A stretch of DNA of 64,000 nt from an uncultured Chloroflexia bacterium (GCA_963698255.1 CAVOQD010000024.1:581072-645071); one strand, 5' to 3'. Numbered from the stretch's first letter, positions 25,669 to 44,154 are shown. Translations and numbers: made by a program. Notes: a model not told the origin generated them from the sequence alone.

Positions 25669-25932
25669 ATGACAGGATCGATTTCGCTACAGCTTGCCCA
25701 ACGCGGTGTCCTCACGTTGCCCAAGGCGTTGCGTGATCAATACAACTTGCAGCCCGGCGATCATCTCACCTTGATTGATATGGATGGTATCTTTTTGCTC
25801 TCGCCACGCCATTCGCAGGTTGACTACTTGGCCGATCAAATTAGCGGTGCTCTGCTCGAACAAGGTGATTCCTTAGAGGCTATGCTGGCGGTTCTGCGCG
25901 AGGAGCGGGAACGCTATGATTCGGAAGCCTGA
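25669..25932 (+). CDS. vapB: AbrB/MazE/SpoVT-type antitoxin (VapB-like)
   Basis: 87 aa. The N-terminal swapped-hairpin pattern LQLAQRGVLTLPKALRDQYNLQPGDHLTLIDMDG is present, and the gene overlaps the downstream PIN gene by 17 nt. Confidence 0.7.
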   Translation: MTGSISLQLAQRGVLTLPKALRDQYNLQPGDHLTLIDMDGIFLLSPRHSQVDYLADQISGALLEQGDSLEAMLAVLREERERYDSEA

Positions 25933-26365
25933 TCTCTTTCTTGACACCAGCGCCCTTTTTGCCGGAGTTTGGTCTGCCGAGGGCGGCGGTCAACATCTGC
26001 TGAAATTGGGCGAGGTCGATGCCGTCCAACTGGTGGTGAGCAGTCAGGTTCTGGTTGAGATGGAGCGAGCGCTGCGCAAGAAAGCGCCTCATCAGTTGGC
26101 GAATTTGGCTGTGCTACTTGAGTGCAGCGGTGTCAAGGTTGTGGAACGCCCTACGCAATCCATGGTCGAGACGTGCCTGCATTTGACCGGATACGAAAAT
26201 GACGCCGTTGTCATCGCTGCGGCCTGGTCGGCGGAATCTGACTATTTCGTGACGTTGGATCAGCGTCATTTTCTGGGCAATGGGCCATTGGCTTCAGCAT
26301 TGCCGTTCCCGCTTGGGACGCCGGGAGACTGCCTTGCCTGGCTGCGCCGGCGGTGGACTCGCTAG
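25916..26365 (+). CDS. vapC: PIN-domain toxin (VapC-like ribonuclease)
   Basis: 149 aa. It has an N-terminal acidic motif LFLDTSAL, DAVVIAAA and FVTLDQRHF, which fits the typical PIN acidic-residue layout. Confidence 0.7.
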   Translation: MIRKPDLFLDTSALFAGVWSAEGGGQHLLKLGEVDAVQLVVSSQVLVEMERALRKKAPHQLANLAVLLECSGVKVVERPTQSMVETCLHLTGYENDAVVIAAAWSAESDYFVTLDQRHFLGNGPLASALPFPLGTPGDCLAWLRRRWTR

Positions 26366-26615: not shown

Positions 26616-27272
26616 TCAACGGCGGCAACAGACGAAGGCGGTGTGCTCTTCGCAGATGCCGGCCACCGGTGTTTCGATGGTGATCCCGAACGCGGCCAGC
26701 AGGTCGCTTAGATCGCCCAGCGGCAAGCCCATAACGCCGGTGAAACAGCCGTCGAGTTTTGCAACCGGGGCAAATCCCGGATGCTGAATGGCGTAGGCGC
26801 CGGCCTTGTCCATCGGGTCGCCGCTTGCGATGTAAGCCTCGATCTCCTCGTCGCTGTAGGCCCGCATGATCACAGTGGATGTGTTCAGCCGGGTTTCCTG
26901 TCGCCCGTCGTCGGTGGATCGCACGCAGATGGCGCTGTAGACCTGATGCGGCTCGGTCCGCAGCAGGCGCAGCATTCGCCCTGCATCGGCCTCATCGACC
27001 GGTTTGCCGAGCACCTGATCGCCGATTGCGACCACGGTGTCGGCTGCGATGATCAGACGAGACTCTTCGGTCGTAAGTCCATCGCAGATGAAAGCATCTG
27101 CAACAGCCTGTGCCTTGCCCTCTGCCAGGCGCAGCACGAGTGCGGTTGGCGACTCGTTTTCCTGGGGCGTTTCGTCAATATCCGCGACACGGATCTCAAA
27201 ATCCAGCCCCATCTGATGGAGAAATGCGCTGCGTCTTGGGCTGGCTGATCCAAGTATAATGGTTGGTTGCAT
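26616..27272 (-). CDS. maf: Maf-like nucleoside triphosphate pyrophosphatase
   Basis: ORF 26616..27338(-). Start placed at MQPTIILGSASPRRSAFLHQMGLDFEI (ATG 27272). Typical blocks GSASPRR, ADTVV, GKP and DKAGAYAIQ are present. Confidence 0.8.
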   Translation of the reverse strand: MQPTIILGSASPRRSAFLHQMGLDFEIRVADIDETPQENESPTALVLRLAEGKAQAVADAFICDGLTTEESRLIIAADTVVAIGDQVLGKPVDEADAGRMLRLLRTEPHQVYSAICVRSTDDGRQETRLNTSTVIMRAYSDEEIEAYIASGDPMDKAGAYAIQHPGFAPVAKLDGCFTGVMGLPLGDLSDLLAAFGITIETPVAGICEEHTAFVCCRR

Positions 27273-27738
27273 GGCTGGCAGTTCCTTTATCATCATTACC
27301 GGTCGTAAGACCCGAGCGTCAAGAGGCATCGCGGCCAAACGTGGATTTCAGTATGTTAGCGGTGCGCACGAGGATCCCGAAAATCTGGTTGTGTACGAAT
27401 GACTCTGCTGCAAGAAATTGAACCCCTCAAACGTCCCCGGCACAGGCCAGATCTTCTTTGGTCAGCGCAGACTTTTGCGGCCTGTGCCGTTACATTGAGT
27501 AGTCCAATACACTGAGTTGCGCCGTTTCTGGACGAAGTGGCGGCGGGCGCCGTACTCTGGTGCAGCAAGCGTTTCCAGAGGGCCGTACCACACTCCGTGT
27601 AAGTGCTGGGGACGTAAAATTTAGGAATGGCATCTGAATTTTTCCCGCGTCTGGACAAATTCCGGTCGCTGTGGCACGATTCTGTTTACGGCGAACTGCC
27701 GTCTTTCTCTTTTCCAATTTGAACCAGATAAGGATGGT

Positions 27739-28771
27739 ATGATGGGCAAGGGCGCGCAAGTGACAAACGATCCGGTTCGGCTGATGATGGTCGGTTGCGG
27801 AGGGATGGCGCGGCACCATGTGCGCCGCATTCTTCAGCAGCAAGAGACGACCGAAATCCGATTGGTTTGTGAGCCTTCAGCAACCAGCTATGAACTGCTC
27901 TGCGAGTTGTTCGATGAGCAGGGCCTTGAGCCGCCGGTCAATGAGCCGGACCTGGCCAAGGCGCTCGCTGATTATGGCGATCAACTCGATGCCGCGTTTA
28001 TCATCACGCCCCACGCCCTCCACTGCGCTCAGGCTGAAGCCTGTCTGGAAGCCGGCCTCGACGTGCTGTTGGAGAAGCCGATGGTACTTGAACATGGCCG
28101 AGGCCGAGCGGCTGATCGAGACGCGGGATCGTACGGGCCGTCTGCTGGTGGTTGCCTTCAACGGCAGCCTTTCCCCGCAGATCCGGACGGCTGTCGACAT
28201 CCTGCGCTCGGGCGAACTGGGCGAGATGCTCAACATTCACGCCGTCGTCTGGCAGAACTGGCGCCTCCTGACGACCGGCACCTGGCGCCAGATACCTGAG
28301 ATCGCCGGCGGCGGCTTCATGTTTGACACTGGCGCGCATCTGCTCAACACGGTGGCCGATCTGGCCGGCGAGGACTTCGTCCAGGTCGGCGCCTGGCTCG
28401 ACAATCGCGGCGCGCCGGTCGACATCGTCGGCACGGTCATCGCTCGTCTGGCGTCGGGCGTTCAGGTTACGCTGACCGGCTGCGGCGACACCATCAAATC
28501 CTGCGATTCGGACGTGCGTGTCTTCTGCACCGAGGGCATTCTGCGCACCGGCGTTTGGGGCGAGCGGCTGGAGGTCCAGCGGGCCGGCGAGGAGGCGCTT
28601 GCGCCGGTCGAGGTTCCCGAGTCCAGCGGCGCCTGGGAACAGTTTGTGCGTGTACGCAACGGAGAGATCGCCAACCCGTCGCCGCCAGAGGTTGGGCTGC
28701 GCATGGCCAAGCTCTGGGATGCCGTGCGCGAGTCGGCTGCGCTGGGCGGGCAGATGGTGGATGTGGGGTGA
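27739..28771 (+). pseudogene. Gfo/Idh/MocA-family oxidoreductase; 1 frame break (about 28090)
   Basis: The N-terminus [15 protein letters not shown]...LLEKPMVL is in ORF 27739..28299. The rest, [25 protein letters not shown]...[14 protein letters not shown]..., is in ORF 27818..28771. Confidence 0.75.
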
Positions 28772-28846
28772 GGAGGTGACAGGGGTGAATGCCAGCGAAC
28801 GATCACTCTCATCTTGTCACCTGTTAATGCCCTGTCACCGTCCCCT
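28765..28846. repeat. inverted-repeat hairpin element, 'GTGACA' family (copy 3)
   Basis: Left arm GGGGTGAGGAGGTGACAGGGGTGA (28765-28788), right arm TCATCTTGTCACCTGTTAATGCCCTGTCACCGTCCCC (28809-28846). Confidence 0.75.
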
Positions 28847-28878
28847 CGCCACTATTTTCAATTCTGACGACGCGGCAA

Positions 28879-28907
28879 TTGACAACCCAATGGAAGCCCG
28901 CTATACT
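28879..28907 (+). promoter_or_regulatory. near-consensus sigma-70-type promoter of the ilv-leu leader
   Basis: TTGACA (28879-28884), exactly 17 nt spacer, TATACT (28902-28907), about 85 nt upstream of the leader-peptide ATG, in a locally AT-rich stretch. Confidence 0.55.
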
Positions 28908-28991
28908 GCTCCAGAAATTGTACGGTGGCCCACAAAGTTGTTGGTTTAGAAGCTTGATGTGGCCCTCAATAGCGAATGTTTGAAGGAAAAT

Positions 28992-29099
28992 ATGAACTTG
29001 GTTCCTAGCCTTCTCGTAATCAGCCTAGTAGTTGTAGAGCTTGTGGTTGTAGTACTTATTAGCAACCGGAAGCCGATGGCTGTTGGAAGCGCTAGGTAG
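28992..29099 (+). CDS. branched-chain amino acid leader peptide (IlvL-like, 35 aa)
   Basis: Below the ORF-track size cutoff. AAGGAAAA SD, then ATG 28992, reading MNLVPSLLVISLVVVELVVVVLISNRKPMAVGSAR with TAG at 29097-29099. Of residues 3-23, 17 of 21 are Leu/Val/Ile. It sits directly upstream of the attenuator terminator and ilvB. Confidence 0.7.
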   Translation: MNLVPSLLVISLVVVELVVVVLISNRKPMAVGSAR

Positions 29100-29132
29100 C
29101 ACAGGTACTCGCTACAAGCACAAGGTCGATCC

Positions 29133-29164
29133 AGACCCTTCCCAGCCGGGAAGGGTCTTTTTTG
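29133..29164 (+). terminator. intrinsic terminator of the ilv-leu attenuator
   Basis: GACCCTTCCC (29134-29143), loop AGCC, GGGAAGGGTC (29148-29157), then TTTTTT (29158-29163). It lies 134 nt upstream of the ilvB ATG. Confidence 0.75.
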
Positions 29165-29297
29165 TACGGTTTTTCGACATATGCTGCCATCTTCAATACT
29201 GATTGATGCTGATGGCATCAAAGCTGTACCATTCGGAATCGTAGTCAATCGTAGTCGAATTTCTAACGTAGGTTCGGTCACTGAAGGAGAATAACTT

Positions 29298-31099
29298 ATG
29301 ACTGAGTCCAATCGCGACGGGCAGACGCCCAATCAGGCTGATACTCCGGAGGAAACTCCGCAGCCGATGACCGGTGCGCAGATGATCTGGGAAGCCTTTA
29401 CGCGTGAAGGGGTGAGTGTGGTCTTTGGGCATCCTGGCGGCGCGATTTTGCCCGCATACGATGCCCTGGCTAAGTATGAAGAAGAGGGCAAGATCCACCA
29501 CGTCCTGGTTCGCCACGAGCAGTGCGCCGGCCACATGGCCGACGGCTACGCTCGTGTTACCGGTGAAGTCGGCGCCTGTGTGGTCACCAGCGGACCGGCA
29601 GCCACCAATTTGATCACCGGCCTGGCGACTGCGCAGATGGACAGCGTGCCCATCGTCGCGATCACCGGCCAGGTGCCGACATCCCTGCTGGGCACCGACG
29701 CCTTTCAGGAGTCTGATGTCGTCGGCGTCTCCCAGCCCGTCTGCAAGCACAACTATTTGGTCACCGATGTCAACGAGCTGCCCATGATCCTCAAGGAGGC
29801 CTTCTACATTGCACGTGAAGGTCGGCCGGGACCGGTGCTGATCGACATCTGTAAGGATGTGCAGAACGCAACGGGCATGTTCCGCTACGACATGGAAGTC
29901 GATCTGCCCGGCTTCGAGCCGTGGCCTGAGGTCAGTGGATCGAAGGTCGCTGAAGCGGCCGCTCTGCTGAATGCCGCCGAACGACCGCTGATTTTGGCCG
30001 GCCACGGCATCAAGATCGCCGGCGTCAGTGCCGAATTGTTGGAACTGATCGAAAAGGCCGAGATCCCCGTCGTGACCACGCTATTGGGCACGGGCGACAT
30101 TCCTGAAGACCATCGGCTGAGTCTGGGCATGGGCGGCATGCACGGTGAGGCCTACGCCAACAAGGCGATCCAGAAATGTGACCTGCTGATTGCCATGGGC
30201 ATGCGCTTTGACGACCGCATCACCGGTGTTCTGGACCGTTTTGCCAAGCAGGCCAAGATTGTCCATTTCGAGCTGGATCGTGCCGAGGTCGGCAAGAATG
30301 TGACGCCGGATGTGGCCGTTGTCGGCGATCTGGCCGATTCTCTGCCGGCCCTGTTGCCGCTGGTTGAAGAGCGTCAGCACCCGGAGTGGGTCGCGTCGGT
30401 GGCCGAGTGGCGAGAAGATTCTGATCAGACAGACATCATCAACCAGGAAGTCGATGAACTGATCCCGCCCTACGTCATCCGCCAGCTTTGGCATGCCACC
30501 AAGGACGCCAAGGACGGAGCCATCATCGTCACCGATGTGGGCCAGCATCAGATGTGGGAGTCCCAGTACTACATCCACAGCCAAGCCGGTCAGTTGCTGA
30601 CCAGCGGCGGCCTGGGCACCATGGGCTATGCGCTGCCCGCGGCCATCGGCGCTCAGATGGCTCACCGGATCGAATGGTCTGGGCCGTGGCCGGCGACGGC
30701 GGCTTCCAGATGACCTTGCAGGAACTGGCCGTGCTCCAACAGGAGAAGTTGCCCGTCAAGATCGCCATCATCAACAATGGCTTCCTGGGCATGGTTCGCC
30801 AGTGGCAGGAGCTCTTCTTCGACAAGCGCTACACCGGCACGCCGATTCTCTCGCCCGACTTTGTCAAGCTGGCTGACGCCTACGGCATTCCGGGCTTGCT
30901 GGTGACCAAGCCGGACGAAGTCGCCGGCGCCTACGCGACAGCCATTGCAACCCCCGGACCTTTCCTGATCGAATTCCGGGTCCAGGAAGAGGTCAACGTC
31001 TTCCCCATGGTTGCGACTGGAGCCGCCGTCGACGAGATGATTCGCCGACCCAAGCCGGCTATCGTCCAGAGCTTCAGCGGCGTTGAGCCGCAGTTCTAA
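29298..31099 (+). pseudogene. ilvB: acetolactate synthase large subunit IlvB; 1 frame break (about 30665, CCC read as CC)
   Basis: ORF 29298..30713 ([33 protein letters not shown]...) and ORF 30488..31099 ([44 protein letters not shown]). The join at GCTCACCGGAT needs one extra C to read [10 protein letters not shown]. Confidence 0.9.
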
Positions 31100-31171
31100 C
31101 TTGAATGATTGGTGTAGCTCAGATCTTTAGCGGATCGAACGCTTTCATGCATGTGAAAAAGGAAAAGACCC

Positions 31172-31741
31172 ATGAAACATACACTTGTCGCCTGGATGCG
31201 TGACAAACCCGGCGTGTTGAACCGGATTGCCGGCATGCTGCGCCGGCGCAATTTCAACATCGACAGCCTGCAGGTTGGCCACAGCGAGACGCCCGGCATC
31301 AGCCGCATGACCTTTGTGGTTGACGGCAACGATCACATGGTCGATCAGGTCATCGAGCAACTGCGCAAGGTTGTGGACGTGACCCGTGTCGAAGATATCA
31401 CTGACCGACCCAGTGTCGCGCGTGAGTTGGCCCTGATCCGAGTGACCACCACGCCCGAAACCCGTTCCGAGATCGTGCAGATGGTCAACATCTATCGCGG
31501 CGAGATCGTCGACGTCGCCATGGACAGCATGGTCGTCCAGATCGTCGGCGCTGAGGATCGAGTCGGGTCGCTCATCGAGTTGCTGGACAACTTCGGCATC
31601 CGCGAGATGGTCCGCACCGGTCGGGTCGCCCTGGTGCGCGGCAGCGCCCAGCGCGTCTCTCGCCGCTCAACCGCAGTCTGGCGTGCCCGCTCCAATGGCG
31701 CAGCCGATCTCAAGGAACGCGAGAGCACCGGCGGCGTTTAG
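31172..31741 (+). CDS. ilvN: acetolactate synthase small (regulatory) subunit
   Basis: 189-aa ORF. The ACT domain [48 protein letters not shown] is present. The basic C-terminal tail may hide a late frame error. Confidence 0.85.
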
Positions 31742-31763
31742 TAGCGTGGACGTCTATACAATT

Positions 31764-31850
31764 CACCGCGGATTTACCGGATCCATCGGATGACCGCGGA
31801 TTTACAAAGAAAATCCGCGGTCATCCGTTTCATCCGCGTAATCCGCGGTA
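31764..31850. repeat. intergenic repeat, 'CCGCGGAT' family (copy 3) with perfect 16-bp core hairpin
   Basis: GGATGACCGCGGATTT (31788-31803), loop ACAAAGA, AAATCCGCGGTCATCC (31811-31826), flanked by further ACCGCGGATTT/ATCCGCGGT words. Confidence 0.8.
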
Positions 31851-31928
31851 AATATTCATCAGTCATCAATACCTATTCAGACCCGAAATCGAGTTCACAG
31901 TTCACACAAAGAGGAACCACACGAAATC

Positions 31929-32930
31929 ATGGCAACGATCTACTACGAAAACAGCGCAGACCTGGCTCAGATCAAGGACAAGAAGATTGCAATCATCGGC
32001 TACGGCAGCCAGGGCCATGCCCATGCCCTGAATCTGACCGACAGCGGCATGGATGTCCGCATCGGCCTGCGTGAGGGCAGCGCCAGCTGGGCCAAGGCCG
32101 AAGCCGCAGGCCTGCGCGTCCTGAGCAATGCCGATGCCGCGGCCGAAGCCGACATCATCATGGTGCTGGCGCCGGATCCGGTCCAGGGCCAGGTCTTCGA
32201 AAACGATATTGCACCGACCCTCAAGGCCGGCGACACGCTGATGTTCGCCCACGGCTTCAACATCCGCTACGGCTTCATTCAGGTTCCTGAAAATGTAGAC
32301 GTCTCCATGATTGCGCCCAAGGCCCCGGGCCATCGCGTACGCGAGGTCTTCACCGAAGGCAGCGGCGTTCCCGGCCTGGTCGCCATCCATCAGGACGCCA
32401 GCGGCAATGCCTTGGCCAACGCCCTGGCCTACGGCAAGGGCATCGGCTGCACCCGCGCCGGCATCATCGAGACGACCTTCACGGAAGAGACCGAGACCGA
32501 TCTCTTCGGCGAGCAGGCCGTGCTCTGCGGCGGCACCAGCGAACTGGTCAAGGCCGCTTTCAACACGCTGGTCGAGGCCGGCTACCAGCCCGAGATCGCC
32601 TACTTCGAGTGTCTGCACGAACTCAAGCTGATCGTCGATCTGATGTACCAGGGCGGTCTGAGCTACATGCGCTACAGCGTCAGCGACACGGCCGAGTGGG
32701 GCGACTACAAGAGCGGCCCGCGCATCGTCACCGACGAGACCCGCGCCGCCATGAAGCAGATCCTGGCCGAGATCCAGTCCGGCGCCTTCGCCGAAGAGTG
32801 GATGGACGAATACCACGCCGGATCCAAGGAACTGACGGCCACCCGCACTGCCGAACAAGATCAGCAACTTGAGACTGTCGGCAAGCAACTGCGCGGCATG
32901 ATGGATTTCTTGGACGCGAAAGAGGTTTAG
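31929..32930 (+). CDS. ilvC: ketol-acid reductoisomerase (class I)
   Basis: Uninterrupted 333-aa ORF with [25 protein letters not shown] and [11 protein letters not shown]. Confidence 0.95.
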
Positions 32931-32937
32931 GGCTACT

Positions 32938-32995
32938 GCGTGCTGCGCTTGCCCTGAGCTTGTCGAAGGGCAAGCGCAGCACGCAACAGTTTTTT
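32938..32995 (+). terminator. 17-bp perfect hairpin + T6 after ilvC ('GAGCTTGTCGAAGGG' family loop)
   Basis: GCGTGCTGCGCTTGCCC (32938-32954), loop TGAGCTTGTCGAA, GGGCAAGCGCAGCACGC (32968-32984), then AACAG and TTTTTT (32990-32995). Confidence 0.65.
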
Positions 32996-33117
32996 CACAG
33001 GAAGGGGGGTGATGCGTATGGACGACGGCCTTAGTGACCTTGGCGATCTGTGTAGAGGACAGGAATTTCGACCGGCAACCAATCCATTGAACGATCAGCC
33101 CCTGGAAGGAACCAGAG

Positions 33118-34898
33118 ATGAGCACCAGAAACGGCGATGTATCCAATTCCGCCACCGGCAGTGACGAATCTGACGTAGACATTTCGGATGTAGATGTATC
33201 CCAGTTTGAAATTGACGACATTCGCGCCTATGCGCGCGAGATCGCCCATGGCAACACGGTGGTGATCTTCGACACCACGCTGCGCGATGGCGAGCAGAGC
33301 CCCGGCGCCACGCTCAACACCCAGGAAAAACTGGATATTGCCGCCCAACTTGCCCGTTTGGGTGTGGACATTATGGAAGCGGGTTTCCCGGCTGCCAGCC
33401 CCGGCGATCTGGATGCAGTGCGACAGATTGCCAACACGGTCGGCAGATCGCCGCGCGAGGGCAAGGACGGCGAGGTCGTGGCGCCGCCGATTATTGCCGG
33501 CTTGGCACGCGCCAACAAGGCCGACATCGACAAGGCGTGGGAGGCGGTGCAGGGCGCTGTGCGACCGCGTATTCATACCTTCATCGCCACCAGCGACATC
33601 CACATGGAGCACAAGCTGCGCATGTCGCGAGACGAGGTGCTGGAGACTGTGGGCGACACAGTCCAATATGCGGCCAGCCTGTGCAACGATGTCGAATTCA
33701 GCCCCGAAGACGCCGGGCGCAGCGATCCCGAGTATCTGGTGCGCGTGCTCTCTGTGGCCATTCAGGCCGGCGCAACCACGCTGAACATCCCGGACACTGT
33801 CGGCTATACCACGCCTGAGGAATATGGCGAGCTGATCCGCTACTCTGCGCGAAAATGTGCCCGGCGGCAAAGATGTGATCTTCAGCGTTCACTGTCACAA
33901 CGATCTGGGGTTGGCGACGGCCAATACGCTGGCCGGTGTGCAGAACGGCGCCCGCCAGATGGAAGTCACCCTGAACGGGATTGGCGAACGCGCCGGCAAC
34001 ACCAGCCTGGAAGAGGCGGCCATGGCCATCCAGGTGCGCGAGCCGATCTACCAACTGCAAACCAACATTGTGTCGCACTGAAATCCACCGTACCAGCGAC
34101 ATGGTCAGCCGCTACACCGGCATGGTCATTCAGCCCAACAAGGCCATCGTCGGGGCCAATGCTTTTGCACACGAGGCCGGCATCCACCAGGACGGCATGC
34201 TCAAGAACAAGCGCACCTACGAGATCATGGATGCGTCGACCATCGGCTTGAACCAGAGCCGATTGGTGCTGGGCAAGCACAGCGGACGCGCCGCGCTCAA
34301 CCGCAAGCTGGAGGGCATGGGCTTCCGGCTGAACAAGGATGAATTGAAAGAAGTGTTCATCCGCTTCAAAGATCTGGCTGACAAGAAGAAGACCGTGACC
34401 GACGCCGATCTGGAAGCGTTGGTCGGCGACGAAATCTACCAGCCCGAAGAGACCTGGGAACTGGTCAACGTGCAGGTCCAGTGTGGAACCGGGCTCATAC
34501 CGACCGCCGTTGTGACTGTGCACAATCGCGAGACCGGTGAGACCAAGACGGATGCCGGATTCGGCACAGGGCCGGTCGACGCCGTCTATCAGGGCATCAA
34601 CCGGGTCGTGGGCGTTCGAAACAATTTGGTCGAGTTTCTCGTACAGGCAGTGACAGAGGGTATCGATGCCACTGGTGACGTGACGATTCGCATCGAGGTT
34701 CCCGCCGGCAGCATCGGCTTCACCGAGACTGCCCAAGGACGCCCGCGTCGACGGCTGTTCAGCGGCCGCGGTGTGGACACCGATATCATTGTCGCCTGCG
34801 CCAAGGCCCATATGCAGGCGCTGAACAAGGCGCTGGCAGCCGAAAAGGGCGAGAGTTCAGCCGTCAATATCGCGGCCGATGCACCTGTGGCGACCTAG
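33118..34898 (+). pseudogene. leuA: 2-isopropylmalate synthase LeuA; 2 frame breaks (about 33845, 34078)
   Basis: ORFs 33118..34251 ([19 protein letters not shown]...), 33857..34081 ([45 protein letters not shown]) and 33981..34898 ([18 protein letters not shown] plus the LeuA dimerisation/regulatory domain). It has an acidic N-terminal extension of about 45 aa. Confidence 0.9.
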
Positions 34899-34967: not shown

Positions 34968-36923
34968 GTGGAAAATGCTGATCGTCTGAAGGAACAGATT
35001 TTTGGTCGGTGGCCTGCCGTTGTTCTTGTCATCGTGATTGTGCTCAGCACTGTGCTCTATCCTCAAGACAACGGCGCTCTCGGCCCCGCTCGTTCAAGAC
35101 ACCGACGCTGGTGTCCCAGCGGGCACTGTCGACTTAGGAGGCAGTGATTTCGCGGCCTGTGATCAGTTGACCGAGGAAGATCTGCGTGCTGAACTCAACC
35201 AACTTGCGCAAGGTGTCTTCGCGCAAGAGGACAGCGGCGTCGACGCAATCGACCTTGACGCCATTGTCGAACGCCAATGGCAGTTGCTGGACATGGATGC
35301 GGTCATCGATTCCGCTGTCGATGACGCCGTTGCCGTGCTCAAGCGCGACGACGATCTCTGGAACACGTTTCTATCGGGGTGGTCGCCGGCCAAGGCCGAG
35401 GATCTGGCTCAGGCCGTGGCCGTGGCCGCATTCGGCTCGGAGACCTTCCGACTGGCGCTGGATGACCTGTCGACGGGCATTGCTGCCGACCTGGAAGTCG
35501 AGATCGCTGCGCTGTCGGCCGAGTCCGTCTCGTCCAACCTCATCTGTCTGCAACAGTTCATCGAACGCAATTATTCGGGCATCGTCGTCGAAGCCTTTCG
35601 GCAGGGCATCAGCGAGGGCGCAGGCGATCTCGAAATCTGCCGCCGGCGACAATCTCGACAGCGGCATTCTGACCGTGCTCGATACCCACAAGACAGCGCT
35701 GGGCGGCGTCGGCGTGATCATCGCGGCCCAGTTGTCGCGCAAGATCGTCGCCCGCATCGGCAAAGGCCGTCTCCAAGCGGGTCGCCGGCCGGCTGGCCGG
35801 ACGTCTGCTGGGCCGGGCCGGGGCCACCATCATCCCGCTGGCCGGCTGGATCGTGGGCGGCGGGTTGATCGTCTATGACGTGCTGGACAGCCTTGATGGC
35901 GCGCTGCCCCAGATCCAGGAATCGCTGCAGTCGCCGGACGCCAAACTGCTGGTGCGAGACGAAATCGTCAGCAGCCTCGAACCGGAGCTTCAGCGCGAAC
36001 TGCCCCAGATCGCGCGTGACGTTGCCAATGATCTCTACGCAGAGTGGCTGGATTTCAAGCGCCAGTACCGGCAGGTTCTGGCGCTTGTCGGAAGAGCGTC
36101 CTGACTTCGAGGCGCTGATCGCCGAGAGCGGCGATCTGGCCAAGGTTGCCGCCACTGCTGGATGTGAGCCTGTCTGTGCTTGGCCCCGACGGCGTGGACG
36201 ACGCCATCGACAGCGGCCTCTTTGCCCGCTTGCTCGCCTTGCCCGGAAGGCGCGGTCGATATTCTGCGCGATACCGGCTCGCCTGAGACCGTGCTGGCAT
36301 GGAGCGAGTTGGCCGGTTCGGCGCTCGACCAAGTCGTCGCCCTGGATCTGCACAAGCTGGCCTCGCCGGACGATCTGGACGCGGCGACGCTCGACTCGTT
36401 GCTGGCCGTCGGCGATCCCGGCAATGGTGGCCAAGCTCGTGCAGGTGCAACCGGCTTCGTTGGCTTCCCTGTTCACGCTCTCTTCCGCCGGCCTCAGCGA
36501 TTTGGCTGGTCCAGATGAGTCCGTCGGAGCTGGACGCGCTGGGCCAATTGTTGGATGGTCTGGAGCCGGAGCGGCGCAATCAACTGGTGCTGGCGCTGCT
36601 CAACAATCCCAACGCCATGGACATCATCGTGCGCGAGGGCGCGGGTCGGGCGATCCTGGCCAGCCGTGACCTGCCGGCCGCCATCGCCTTTCTGGACACG
36701 CCTGCGGACGGCTACAGCATCGTGACGGACGGTATCAGCGTGGCCAATGGGTCGGTCTCGTTGCGTCTCTTCGGTCGAAAAGTACGGCGGCATGACCACG
36801 CTGCTGATCGTGCTGGTTCCACTGCTGCTGGCCGCCGGGATCGTCTATTCGATGGTGAGCCTGATGGCTCGACCGTTGGTCGGGGTTTACAATCTTCTGT
36901 TTGGACGGCGTAGGCCACGCTAG
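34968..36923 (+). pseudogene. uncharacterised large acidic membrane-anchored protein, paralogue A (about 650 codons; about 9 frame breaks)
   Basis: Reconstructed from ORFs 35038..35868, 35186..35878, 35853..36104, 35875..36669, 36180..36518 and 36299..36913. The GTG 34968 N-terminus is VENADRLKEQIFGRWPAVVLVIVIVLSTVLY and the C-terminus is YGGMTTLLIVLVPLLLAAGIVYSMV...GRRRPR* (TAG 36921-36923). It is collinear with paralogue B. I recognise no known domain. Confidence 0.5.
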
Positions 36924-37065
36924 ACGGTAGCCCGTCAGCGTGAGCGTAGCGTACCTGAAGTTGTAGCACGGCATTCATGCCGCACCATCGTTTGGAGACC
37001 CTGAATGCAGACATACGACGTTGACTCGGCCGAAGATCCGCAAGGCCCTGGGCAAGGCGCTCTTG

Positions 37066-37371
37066 ATGAGCCTGGACACACTGCCCGAACCAGATATCGA
37101 GGTCGGCGACTTTGTGGTCGTGGTCGTGGTCAAGGCGGCCAATGTGGTGCGCGATATCCGTGAGAACATTCGCAATCTCGTCGGCGGCCGCATGAAACAT
37201 TACGAGAAACTGATCGAGGATGCGGTCGAAGAGGCCGTGTCCGAACTCGGGCAGAAGGCGCAGAAGCGTGGATACGACGGCGTGGTCGGCCTCAAGATCT
37301 CGCACCCCATGGTGGTGGACGGCAGCGTCGAGGTCGTCGTCTATGGGAATGGGTTCAAGCGCGTGCGATAG
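37066..37371 (+). CDS. ybjQ: YbjQ/UPF0145 (DUF74) family protein
   Basis: ORF 37021..37371 with ATG at 37066. [59 protein letters not shown] aligns with E. coli YbjQ [55 protein letters not shown] (from memory). Confidence 0.7.
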
Positions 37372-37465
37372 GGAATTTGTACCTCGACGTACGAGATTCA
37401 GTCGGAGGCATGCTGCCGGTGCGCTTCGACATAAATGTCGGTGCAGGGTCGCTGTAAGGTCCAAG

Positions 37466-39300
37466 ATGTCGTTACGGAAACTAGCTCGAAAACCCAGGTC
37501 TTCACATGCGCCTCGCCGACATCTGCCGACGGGATCGTTCTTGGCGTTGATGGCGTTCTTGCTGACAGTCTCTTCGATCCTTCTACCCGTCACCGACTCT
37601 GGCCCAGGACTACACCTATGGCGAATGCAACACTGTCGAACCGGAGGCGCTGGCGGCGGAGATCGAGGGGCTGGCTCGAACCGTACTGGTAGACGGCCAG
37701 GGACTTCTCAACATCGACGCCATTGTCTGATCGGCAGTGGATCGCCGTGGGCATGGACGCTACATTGGATCAGGCGGTGGAGTCGGCGGTACAGGCGTTG
37801 ATGGCCGAAGAGCCGTACTGGGCGCGCTTCCTGTCGGGCTGGTCCGGCGCCAAGGCCGAAGAATTCGCCGCAGCGATCACGCAGCGGGTCTTCTCTTCGC
37901 CGCAATTCGTGGCCAAGCTGGACGAACTGGCCGCCGCCATCGCCGATGATGTGACGGTTGAACTGGAATCGATGGCGGCTCGTTCGGCATCCACATCGTT
38001 GCTCTGCCTACAGCAGTATGTCGGTGAACGCTATTCGGAGAGCCTGTTGACCCTCTTCGAGACGGAGATCCGCACCGATATCGAGGTCGCCGATCTGAAT
38101 GCGTCCCCGGACGATTTGGATGTCTCCCAGTTGACGACCCACGGCAAGGCTGCCACGGGCATTAGCGTCATCATCGCCACCCAGGTCGTGCGCCGCATCA
38201 GCGTACAGTTAGGCAAGAAAGTCGCCGGTCGCGTGGCAGGACGAATCGTGGGCCGGGTGCTGGGCAAGCTCGGATCGTCGCTGATTCCGCTGGCCGGTTG
38301 GGTGGTCGGGGGCGGCCTGATTGTGTGGGATCTGGTCGAGGGCGGGCAAGGCTCGCTTCCGCAGATAGAAGAGTCGCTGAAGGACGAAGAGGTGAAGGTC
38401 GCGCTACGCGCTGAGATCGCAGCCGCGGTCGAATCAGGGCTGGATGATGAGGTCGATCTGATGGCCGCGCAGATCGCCGATGAACTGATGGGCGAGTGGA
38501 ATCAATTCTGCCAACGGCATCCAACCCTGTGCTCGCTGCCCGAAGAGAGTGCTCAATTTCAGGCGATTCTTGACGCTACATCCGTCGAGGATCTGGACAA
38601 GCTTGCCGGATTGGTCGACATCTTCATCGCCGACCTGGGGCGCCCCCGACTGGATATTTCGCTGGAGAACGGCGATTTTGAAGCACTATTACAGCTTTCA
38701 GAGCAGGCTTATGCGATCCTGCTGGAGACGGGATCAACCGAAACGGCGCTGGCGTGGGCGGATCTGGCCGGCGGCAACGTCGATGAGGTGGTCCGACTCG
38801 GACTCTTTCAGTTGATGGAGCCGTCCATGACGGATGAAGCTGAGGTCAGTGCATTGATTGGCCTGGCTGACAAGGAGACGATCTCGCACTACTTCACAAC
38901 GACGCCGGAAACACGCAACGCGCTGCTGACGTACTCGCCTACCACGCGCAAGGGGCTGCTTGAGCGTCTCGATCCGGCCGACATCGACTGGTTGATCACA
39001 TACATGGCAGCAGAAAACGTCGCCGACGCTGAGTCGATGGCCTATCGGATCGCCAACGGGATTGAGACGGTCGCCATGTTGCAAAGCCCGCCGGTCGCGA
39101 CCAAGCAAGGCCCGTCCAAAATTGCCGCAGCCGGCCTTTCCCTGCCCGAGGCGGTGCTGGTGCTGGAACCGGATTCCAGACCGGATGCCAGTCCACGGCA
39201 GAACAGTGTGCTCGTGGCCGCGATGCTACTAAGTGTCGTTTTGGCAATATCTGCATTTGCACTGGTAGGCTGGAATGTTGTAAAACGTAGTCAGCATTAA
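37466..39300 (+). pseudogene. uncharacterised large acidic membrane-anchored protein, paralogue B (about 610 codons; 2 frame breaks near the 5' end, about 37600 and 37720)
   Basis: The clean 525-aa ORF 37723..39300 ends in the TM helix VLVAAMLLSVVLAISAFALVGW. Comparison with A extends it upstream through YTYGECNTVEPEALAAEIEGLARTVLVDGQGLLNIDAIV (another frame) to MSLRKLARKP...FLALMAFLLTVSSILLP (ATG 37466). I recognise no known domain. Confidence 0.5.

Positions 39301-39468: not shown

Positions 39469-44154
<4,686 letters not shown>

Follow-up and report, generated by a model that had tools for sequence, protein, structure and literature searches.

An element located upstream of the ilvB-ilvN-ilvC-leuA genes in a 64,000-nucleotide (nt) stretch of DNA from an uncultured Chloroflexia bacterium (GCA_963698255.1, CAVOQD010000024.1:581072-645071, hereafter the window) is very probably a ribosome-mediated leader-peptide transcription attenuator, which would adjust read-through into the operon to the availability of transfer RNA (tRNA) charged with Leu, Val and Ile. 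An attenuator of this class had been proposed in a preliminary description of the window, and the proposal is supported by the conservation of the arrangement in 80 of 80 related loci, by an antiterminator that is mutually exclusive with the terminator and by the geometry of stalled and terminating ribosomes. The comparison of sequences documents the parts of the element, their conservation, the alternative pairings and this geometry.

The element probably represents the first documented family of leader-peptide attenuators in Chloroflexota, a lineage-wide Caldilineaceae/Caldilineales ilvB leader with four distinctive features. The first of these is the near-invariance of the interacting strands, which are an antiterminator box (GGUUGGNGAAGG), the terminator 5' arm and loop (CCUUCCCAACC) and the terminator 3' arm (GGGAAGG). 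The others are rare codons used throughout the family, a subgroup with a peptide ending before the box, and an apparently leaderless clade. No account of an ilv leader or attenuator in Chloroflexi or Caldilinea was found in the literature outside subscription sources. The family is new and well defined while the mechanism itself is the classical one and not new, so that the finding is solid, useful and moderately interesting rather than surprising.

Structure of the leader region

A sigma-70-type promoter with the sequence TTGACA-17 nt-TATACT, matching 11 of 12 consensus positions, was located at 28879..28907 on the plus strand, which carries all of the features described in this section. The Shine-Dalgarno-like sequence AAGGAAAA at 28983..28990 was read 1 nt 5' of the leader ATG, and both signals agree with the near-consensus promoter and ribosome-binding site that had been noted previously. 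The leader open reading frame (ORF) that follows at 28992..29099 contains 35 codons and a stop codon at 29097..29099, and its translation is MNLVPSLLVISLVVVELVVVVLISNRKPMAVGSAR. Codons 3-23 (28998-29060) form the regulatory run, and translation bore out the earlier count of 17 Leu, Val or Ile residues among these 21. The predicted ~80-nt 5' untranslated region between the promoter and the leader ATG contains a further predicted hairpin within 28915-28970, formed by GGCCCACA…TGTGGCC.

The intrinsic terminator spans 29133..29163 and consists of a 5' arm (29133-29143), an AGCC loop (29144-29147), a 3' arm (29148-29158) and a run of six T residues (29158-29163). The G+C-rich stem has 11 pairs with a folding energy of -21.3 kcal/mol, and is separated from the leader stop codon by a gap of 32 nt. 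The ilvB ATG at 29298 is situated 134 nt beyond the terminator, and the earlier report of a hairpin with six T residues at this distance was correct. In the window, as at all of the related loci, a biosynthetic operon is preceded by a short ORF with many codons for the amino acids made by the operon, and an intrinsic terminator is situated 3' of this ORF and 5' of the first gene.

Between the start of the leader ORF and the terminator four pairing segments were recognised. Region 1 (CCTAGCCTTC, 29004..29013, codons 5-8) is the 5' strand of a protector helix predicted in minimum-free-energy folds. Hairpin P1 (29039..29073) lies inside the ORF, and the alignment pairs 29039-29050 with 29062-29073. 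Region 2 (29078..29096) comprises the box at 29078-29089 and GCTAGG at 29091-29096, has region 1 or the terminator 5' arm and loop as alternative partners, and is followed immediately on its 3' side by the leader stop codon. The fourth segment, also taken from the alignment, is a mini-hairpin (29124..29137) in which GGTC at 29124-29127 pairs with GACC at 29134-29137. In the antiterminated fold it takes up the basal part of the terminator 5' arm.

The leader region has a G+C content of 45-50% compared to 60-69% in its flanks, as had been indicated by its description as AT-rich in GC-rich surroundings, and is more stably folded than shuffled sequence (z = -3.6). On both strands of the 64-kb window three short stop-to-stop frames contain at least nine Leu, Val or Ile per 12 residues, and the leader ORF is the only one of them with a T-run behind it. 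Because of this, and because the arrangement recurs upstream of ilvB in every related genome, the sequence comparison confirms that the leader pattern is real and not due to chance.

Conservation and distribution of the leader

Loci for comparison were obtained from one scan of a species-representative genome collection with the window IlvB. All 80 loci were from Caldilineaceae/Caldilineales metagenome-assembled genomes of the phylum Chloroflexota, which agrees with the Chloroflexota-like origin guessed in the preliminary description, and the closest relatives of the window are 'MFD' metagenome-assembled genomes. The range sampled is given by the genome-collection scan and a protein search, which returned only Caldilineaceae-like IlvB with 68-91% identity. 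Most of the per-locus counts given below use 79 loci, and the codon comparison uses 78 relatives.

A script that required a Leu/Val/Ile-rich small ORF and then a terminator at most 700 nt upstream of ilvB matched 78 of the 80 loci, and the remaining two (L061 and L080) were found using a covariance model, R1, which was built from those 78. With this model the ORF and terminator were identified upstream of ilvB at all 80 Caldilineaceae loci, in one copy each. The homologous leader ORFs have a median length of 36 codons and a median Leu/Val/Ile content of 44%. Within the window R1 gave a single plus-strand copy at 29035-29163 (88.8 bits, E about 2e-21), and the only other match, on the minus strand at 29133-29164 (25.8 bits), was caused by the terminator palindrome. 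Neither the R1 scan nor a search for Leu/Val/Ile-rich ORFs followed by a T-run gave a second copy or a regulon within the 64-kb window.

The same arrangement was present upstream of an IlvB named 'MULTISPECIES [Caldilinea]' by NCBI, where the promoter is TTGACA-17-TATACT, the leader peptide is MASAVVASISLLLLIVVLRVVVVDRELIRVGEG and the terminator AGACCCTTCCCAACCGGGAAGGGTCT is followed by seven T residues; R1 detects one copy at this locus. A pattern scan of metagenome contigs gave 85 matches, of which R1 confirmed 31; two further matches contain a T-run and a Leu/Val/Ile-rich ORF (L141-type excluded), and the rest were rejected as chance matches with neither. In all 29 confirmed-type matches with sufficient downstream sequence the next gene is ilvB. 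The genes located 5' of the element fall into 34 different clusters, and the element therefore travels with ilvB and not with the preceding gene. The promoter motif TTGACA-17/18-TATACT is identical in about 30 loci, 70-210 nt upstream of the Leu/Val/Ile run, and a promoter match of at least 9 of 12 positions was found in 46 of 79.

The distance between the terminator and ilvB varies from 28-40 nt in several loci up to about 250 nt in others. This spacing bears on the possibility that the leader peptide acts mainly on the translation of ilvB, for instance through re-initiation or the opening of structure, or on the stability of its messenger RNA (mRNA), the hairpin being a constitutive partial terminator whose read-through would be independent of branched-chain amino acids. 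A role of leader genes in raising downstream translation through re-initiation has been proposed (PMC4833913), and the shortest of these distances would suit such a role. The separations of 134 nt in the window, about 250 nt elsewhere and about 900 nt in L061 are too long for re-initiation, and both the alternative pairing of the box with the terminator and the position of the box relative to the leader stop codon would be left unexplained. An effect on translation or stability is accordingly considered very unlikely, and attenuation of transcription remains the preferred explanation.

Two loci have an unusual interval between the attenuator and ilvB. In L061 a gap of about 900 nt that contains no long ORF separates the attenuator (1900-2026, 104 bits) from ilvB downstream of it, and this gap represents a spacer of unusual length or else inserted DNA that has decayed. 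In L080 (1200-2900) a gene for a 461-residue TnpB/Cas12f-like protein (Pfam PF07282) has been inserted between ilvB and an intact attenuator, with leader MTTQLYSSFLLLPDAQVDLVVLRPHLCGEG and terminator at 1269-1394, and ilvB may be uncoupled from its attenuator at this locus.

Pairing of the box with the terminator

Alignment of the leader loci (alignment A1) revealed a near-invariant box, GGUUGGNGAAGG, with the family consensus GGTTGGNGAAGG. The box is more than 90% conserved, with TGG invariant, and has the sequence GGCUGUUGGAAG (GGCTGTTGGAAG) at 29078-29089 in the window. It forms the last sense codons of the leader, which encode V-G-E-G/A. In the window the box is predicted to pair with 29138-29147 through GGCUG:CAGCC and GGAAG:CUUCC. 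This pairing takes up the 5' arm and loop of the terminator, and the two structures exclude each other. In 77-78 of 79 loci the most stable duplex available to this arm and loop (CCCTTCCCAACC) is the one with the box, and across these loci the predicted energies are -11 to -21 kcal/mol for the box duplex and -13 to -25 kcal/mol for the terminator hairpin.

The helix between the box and the terminator is paired in 87.3% of the cells of A1, compared to 32-62% in slid registers. A value of 88.5% was obtained from an alignment fitted to P1 and the terminator only, which is thus unbiased toward the box pairing; over both alignments the slid registers gave 29-73%. For structural analysis a covariance-model alignment took the place of a MAFFT alignment, whose small offsets had limited RNAalifold to 5 of the terminator pairs. 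In divergent clades a C to U change in the 5' arm is matched by a G to A change in the box (GC 26, AU 11) and is matched also in the terminator 3' arm (CG 72, UA 11), giving one position that covaries across the box, the 5' arm and the 3' arm. The loop and box vary together in the same way, with AACC opposite GGTT, CACC opposite GGTG and, in the clade of the window, AGCC opposite GGCT.

The terminator is paired in 98% of cells throughout the family, with CG-to-UA compensatory changes at two pairs. Hairpin P1 is paired in about 75% of cells compared to 28-50% in slid registers, with compensatory changes at 7 of 9-10 pairs and double-sided changes in 114 cells compared to 61 +/- 6 in shuffles. 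Its 5' strand and loop consist of Val, Leu and Ile codons, making P1 a candidate pause or protector hairpin.

On the evidence of these alignments the main antiterminator is the box paired with the terminator 5' arm and loop, and not the pairings suggested in the preliminary description. The first of those placed CTTGTGGTTGTAG (29040-29052) opposite CTACAAGCACAAG (29112-29124) as a 1:2 pairing of an attenuator. The two segments are complementary at 12 of 13 positions as stated, and the pairing is not conserved, at 55% of cells compared to 50% when slid by one; it is particular to the clade of the window. The second, a 2:3 antiterminator pairing, contains a real and conserved 4-base-pair hairpin, the GGTC:GACC mini-hairpin, which is paired in 93% of cells with double-sided changes in 12 cells compared to 1.1 in shuffles; its part is an accessory one and not that of the main antiterminator. 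The mini-hairpin adjoins the main antiterminator helix in the fold of the window in which all 10 of 10 antiterminator pairs are predicted.

A shortened leader (…LLVSGSRP*) distinguishes a subgroup formed by L028, L029, L035, L036, L039, L040 and about 15 similar loci. Its stop codon is situated two codons 5' of the box, and both the box and the terminator are unchanged. The box is therefore conserved as RNA and not as peptide. Judged from its sequences, this subgroup is a natural variant in which a terminating ribosome would only partly cover the antiterminator strand.

The conservation of composition rather than sequence also bears on whether the ORF might encode a small hydrophobic membrane peptide or type I toxin-like peptide, provided with its own terminator and adjacent to ilvB by accident. 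The peptide is hydrophobic and of membrane-spanning length, and the ORF does have its own promoter and terminator. However, the sole motif kept is VGEG, which is an RNA pairing element and falls outside the ORF in the early-stop subgroup, ilvB is linked in every case with enough sequence whatever the upstream neighbour, and rare codons would be odd for an expressed protein. Of the alternatives considered, a membrane or toxin-like peptide is the least probable, and the ORF is read here as a regulatory leader.

Folding with a positioned ribosome

Full-length folds with ribosome masks were uninformative because attenuation is kinetic, and were replaced by a transcript cut before the terminator 3' arm. 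Masks that permitted pairing around the ribosome were also set aside, having given region 1:region 2 pairing with the A site at codons 13-23, which is sterically implausible. For the window the transcript was cut at 29147 and the ribosome was given a 30-nt footprint. Without a ribosome this transcript folded into a long protector hairpin of region 1 with region 2, and none of the 10 antiterminator pairs was present. Placing the A site at codons 7-12 gave all 10 of these pairs, and placing the ribosome at the stop codon gave none. The preliminary description had suggested folding under stalled-ribosome constraints as a check, and in the cut transcript the antiterminator does depend on the position of the ribosome, with 10 of 10 against 0 of 10 pairs.

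In a second model, applied at every codon of 79 loci, folding was restricted to RNA 3' of the ribosome. Long-range pairs captured the terminator 5' arm and loop in 77 of 79 loci when the ribosome occupied the Leu/Val/Ile run, and this capture held at a median of 93% of the Leu/Val/Ile codons. A ribosome placed at the stop codon gave the antiterminator in 0 of 79. Stalled and terminating ribosomes are therefore distinguished as a classical attenuator demands, in the folding model only.

Proposed mechanism

Transcription would start at the promoter at 28879-28907, and the leader ORF would be translated while RNA polymerase moves ahead. When branched-chain amino acids are plentiful the ribosome would reach the stop codon at 29097 and cover 29078-29096, allowing the terminator at 29133-29158 to fold with its T6 run, and the transcript would end near 29163. 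When a branched-chain amino acid is scarce the ribosome would stall within the 17 Leu/Val/Ile codons, most of which are rare. The stalled ribosome would disrupt or mask region 1 and P1 and leave the box free to pair with the 5' arm and loop of the terminator ahead of the synthesis of its 3' arm, helped by the GGUC:GACC mini-hairpin; the terminator would then be blocked and the operon transcribed. In a third state, predicted for the window in the absence of translation, the region 1:region 2 protector helix would form and with it the terminator. The sequestering of region 2 by region 1 in the untranslated leader, which we infer from the folding models, is the weaker part of this scheme. Translation of the ORF, stalling, kinetic competition between the folds and the response to branched-chain amino acids are all presumed from sequence.

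Codon usage and initiation of translation

The Leu, Val and Ile codons of the window leader have a mean relative usage of 0.17 compared to an expected 0.35 (P < 5e-5 by simulation). There is no CTG and no GTC, while GTA occurs five times, GTT four times and CTT three times. Across the relatives GTA makes up 45% of leader Val codons compared to 8% in ilvB, CTT 47% of leader Leu codons compared to 8%, and ATT 63% of leader Ile codons compared to 36%. This preference for rare codons fits a sensor of tRNA charging, and constraints from RNA structure may contribute to it.

Of the 79 loci only about 36, roughly counted, have a Shine-Dalgarno-like core before ilvB itself. In the clade formed by L068-L074 and L080 a promoter-like TTGACT-18-TACAAT ends 5-6 nt before the leader ATG (for example at L080:1200-1240), and this position of the TACAAT box suggests that the leader mRNA of the clade is leaderless or nearly so.

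Several observations weigh against attenuation by a translating ribosome. A Shine-Dalgarno-like core was found before the leader in only 12-15 of 79 loci, and the clade just described appears leaderless instead of carrying such a sequence; since these sequences are scarce, efficient translation of the leader is an assumption. True covariation is limited to 3-4 of 12 antiterminator pairs, because the helix is so conserved. The full-length minimum-free-energy folds keep the terminator under every mask, so the switch must be kinetic and beyond the reach of folding. The protector fold of region 1 with region 2, obtained for the window, is predicted by minimum free energy in only 38 of 79 loci, which makes the no-translation state the least secure. 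The loci are related, and their counts are not counts of independent events. Finally, mutation of the codons in a similar-looking ilvB leader from Streptomyces coelicolor was without effect, contrary to what is expected of a classical attenuator (PMC1262725).

The last of these points, together with the lack of a clear Shine-Dalgarno sequence in most leaders and the conservation of the box and terminator far beyond the need of pairing, would also suit a terminator/antiterminator switch worked by a protein, tRNA or metabolite at the box or P1, in the manner of T-box, riboswitch or TRAP-like systems, with the ORF incidental. Against such a switch, the ORF is open, rich in Leu, Val and Ile and stopped within ribosome reach of the box everywhere, though the peptide diverges, and the rare-codon bias is specific to the leader. 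There is no match to a T-box or riboswitch family at E <= 10 and no Stem I or specifier-like structure, and the high conservation can be explained by three-way pairing combined with coding constraint. A switch of this kind is considered unlikely, although less so than the alternatives discussed above, and a ribosome-mediated attenuator is favoured.

Comparison with known attenuators

The region 28700-29400 was searched against Rfam using cmscan at E <= 10, giving noise only; the highest score was 16.7 bits, compared to a gathering score of 127. The T-box family RF00230 gave no match at this threshold, in agreement with the earlier statement that no T-box is present. T-box leaders such as that of Bacillus ilv-leu resemble the present element in that the charging of tRNA is reported by the formation of either a terminator or an antiterminator. 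The present leader lacks a Stem I, a specifier loop and a T-box sequence, and sensing would be through the translating ribosome.

The leaders of the enterobacterial class, including ilvGMEDA (ilvL), ilvBN (ivbL) and the trp, his and leu operons, likewise combine a short ORF containing cognate codons with an intrinsic terminator. They also have an antiterminator strand in common with the terminator, and the position of their stop codon is such that a ribosome terminating there prevents the antiterminator from forming. The E. coli ilvGMEDA leader is closest in its mixed (multivalent) sensing of Leu, Val and Ile. Rare codons are used in the leu leader, a likeness to the Caldilineaceae leader. Despite these similarities there is no resemblance at the level of sequence or Rfam family, the operon is ilvBNC-leuA and the phylum is Chloroflexota. 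In the Caldilineaceae leader the antiterminator strand is formed by the last sense codons and pairs with the terminator loop and 5' arm, and the antiterminated fold contains an extra mini-hairpin.

The E. coli ilvL peptide had been given exactly in the preliminary description (MTALLRVISLVVISVVVIIIPPCGAALGRGKA), and it does share VISLVV with the window leader. The two closest relatives of the window (L001 and L002) have VVSLVV in place of this hexapeptide, and the likeness to ilvL is therefore compositional and not due to homology. A homologue of E. coli ilvL was rejected on this ground and on that of the missing Rfam leader match.

Among actinobacteria, a three-hairpin attenuator of ilvBNC in Corynebacterium glutamicum and an ilvB-II upstream ORF motif have been described (PMC11857589, PMC10272879), as have candidate leaders in Mycobacterium and Streptomyces (PMC1262725). 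The actinobacterial ilvBNC leaders are the closest by operon, having the same first genes, ilvB-ilvN-ilvC. Like the present leader they contain an upstream ORF with a high content of Leu, Val and Ile and, behind it, a terminator that has a U-run; both sets were predicted by comparative genomics. The actinobacterial ORFs overlap the terminator and their regulation is reported as uncertain, whereas here the ORF ends 32 nt earlier and there is a distinct antiterminator. The sequences of the two sets of leaders are unrelated.

The earlier remark that Firmicutes use T-boxes instead was too sweeping. Reported ilv-leu leader-peptide attenuators include those of Staphylococcus aureus, where the peptide is leucine-rich (PMC5794164), and of Listeria monocytogenes (PMC5864092). 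These share with the present leader the control by an attenuator peptide outside Proteobacteria, and differ in lineage, in sequence and in acting together with CodY.

The present family would extend ribosome-mediated attenuation, which needs a ribosome close behind RNA polymerase, to Chloroflexota. If the assignment is true, a deep-branching phylum, in which the coupling of transcription and translation is not known to have been studied, either acquired classical attenuation or kept it. Caldilinea is a cultured genus and offers a testable case. The alignment and covariance model provide a family definition that is absent from Rfam and from genome annotation, and the leader itself is an example of a small ORF missed by gene callers. 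The natural variants, with a stop codon before the box, a leaderless start or an insertion sequence (IS) element between the attenuator and ilvB, could help to show which parts of the classical model are essential.

The operon and its neighbourhood

The genes downstream of the leader had been named ilvBNC-leuA, and NCBIfam equivalog matches bear this out over 29298..34898. On the plus strand these matches identify ilvB (29298-31099), ilvN (31172-31741), ilvC (31929-32930) and leuA (33118-34898). The ilvB gene is split by a frameshift near 30664, where the window (30640-30700) is one base short relative to L001, L002 and L003, and leuA is split by a single frameshift at about 34050-34110. A glutamate synthase ORF (39800-41353) begins mid-domain. 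Three broken housekeeping genes within 12 kb point to indel errors of a long-read assembly rather than true pseudogenes.

Between leuA and the glutamate synthase ORF, at 35038-39300, there are ORFs of 276, 264, 293 and 525 amino acids with no Pfam or NCBIfam match. These may be genuine or frameshifted genes, or may belong to the ilv-leu transcription unit. Upstream of the leader are a PIN-domain ORF (25916-26365, plus strand), a Maf-like gene (26616-27338, minus strand) and a gene for a Gfo/Idh/MocA-type oxidoreductase (27818-28771, plus strand). The last of these ends ~110 nt before the attenuator promoter, and searches using tblastn gave this neighbour at only 14 of the 80 related loci.

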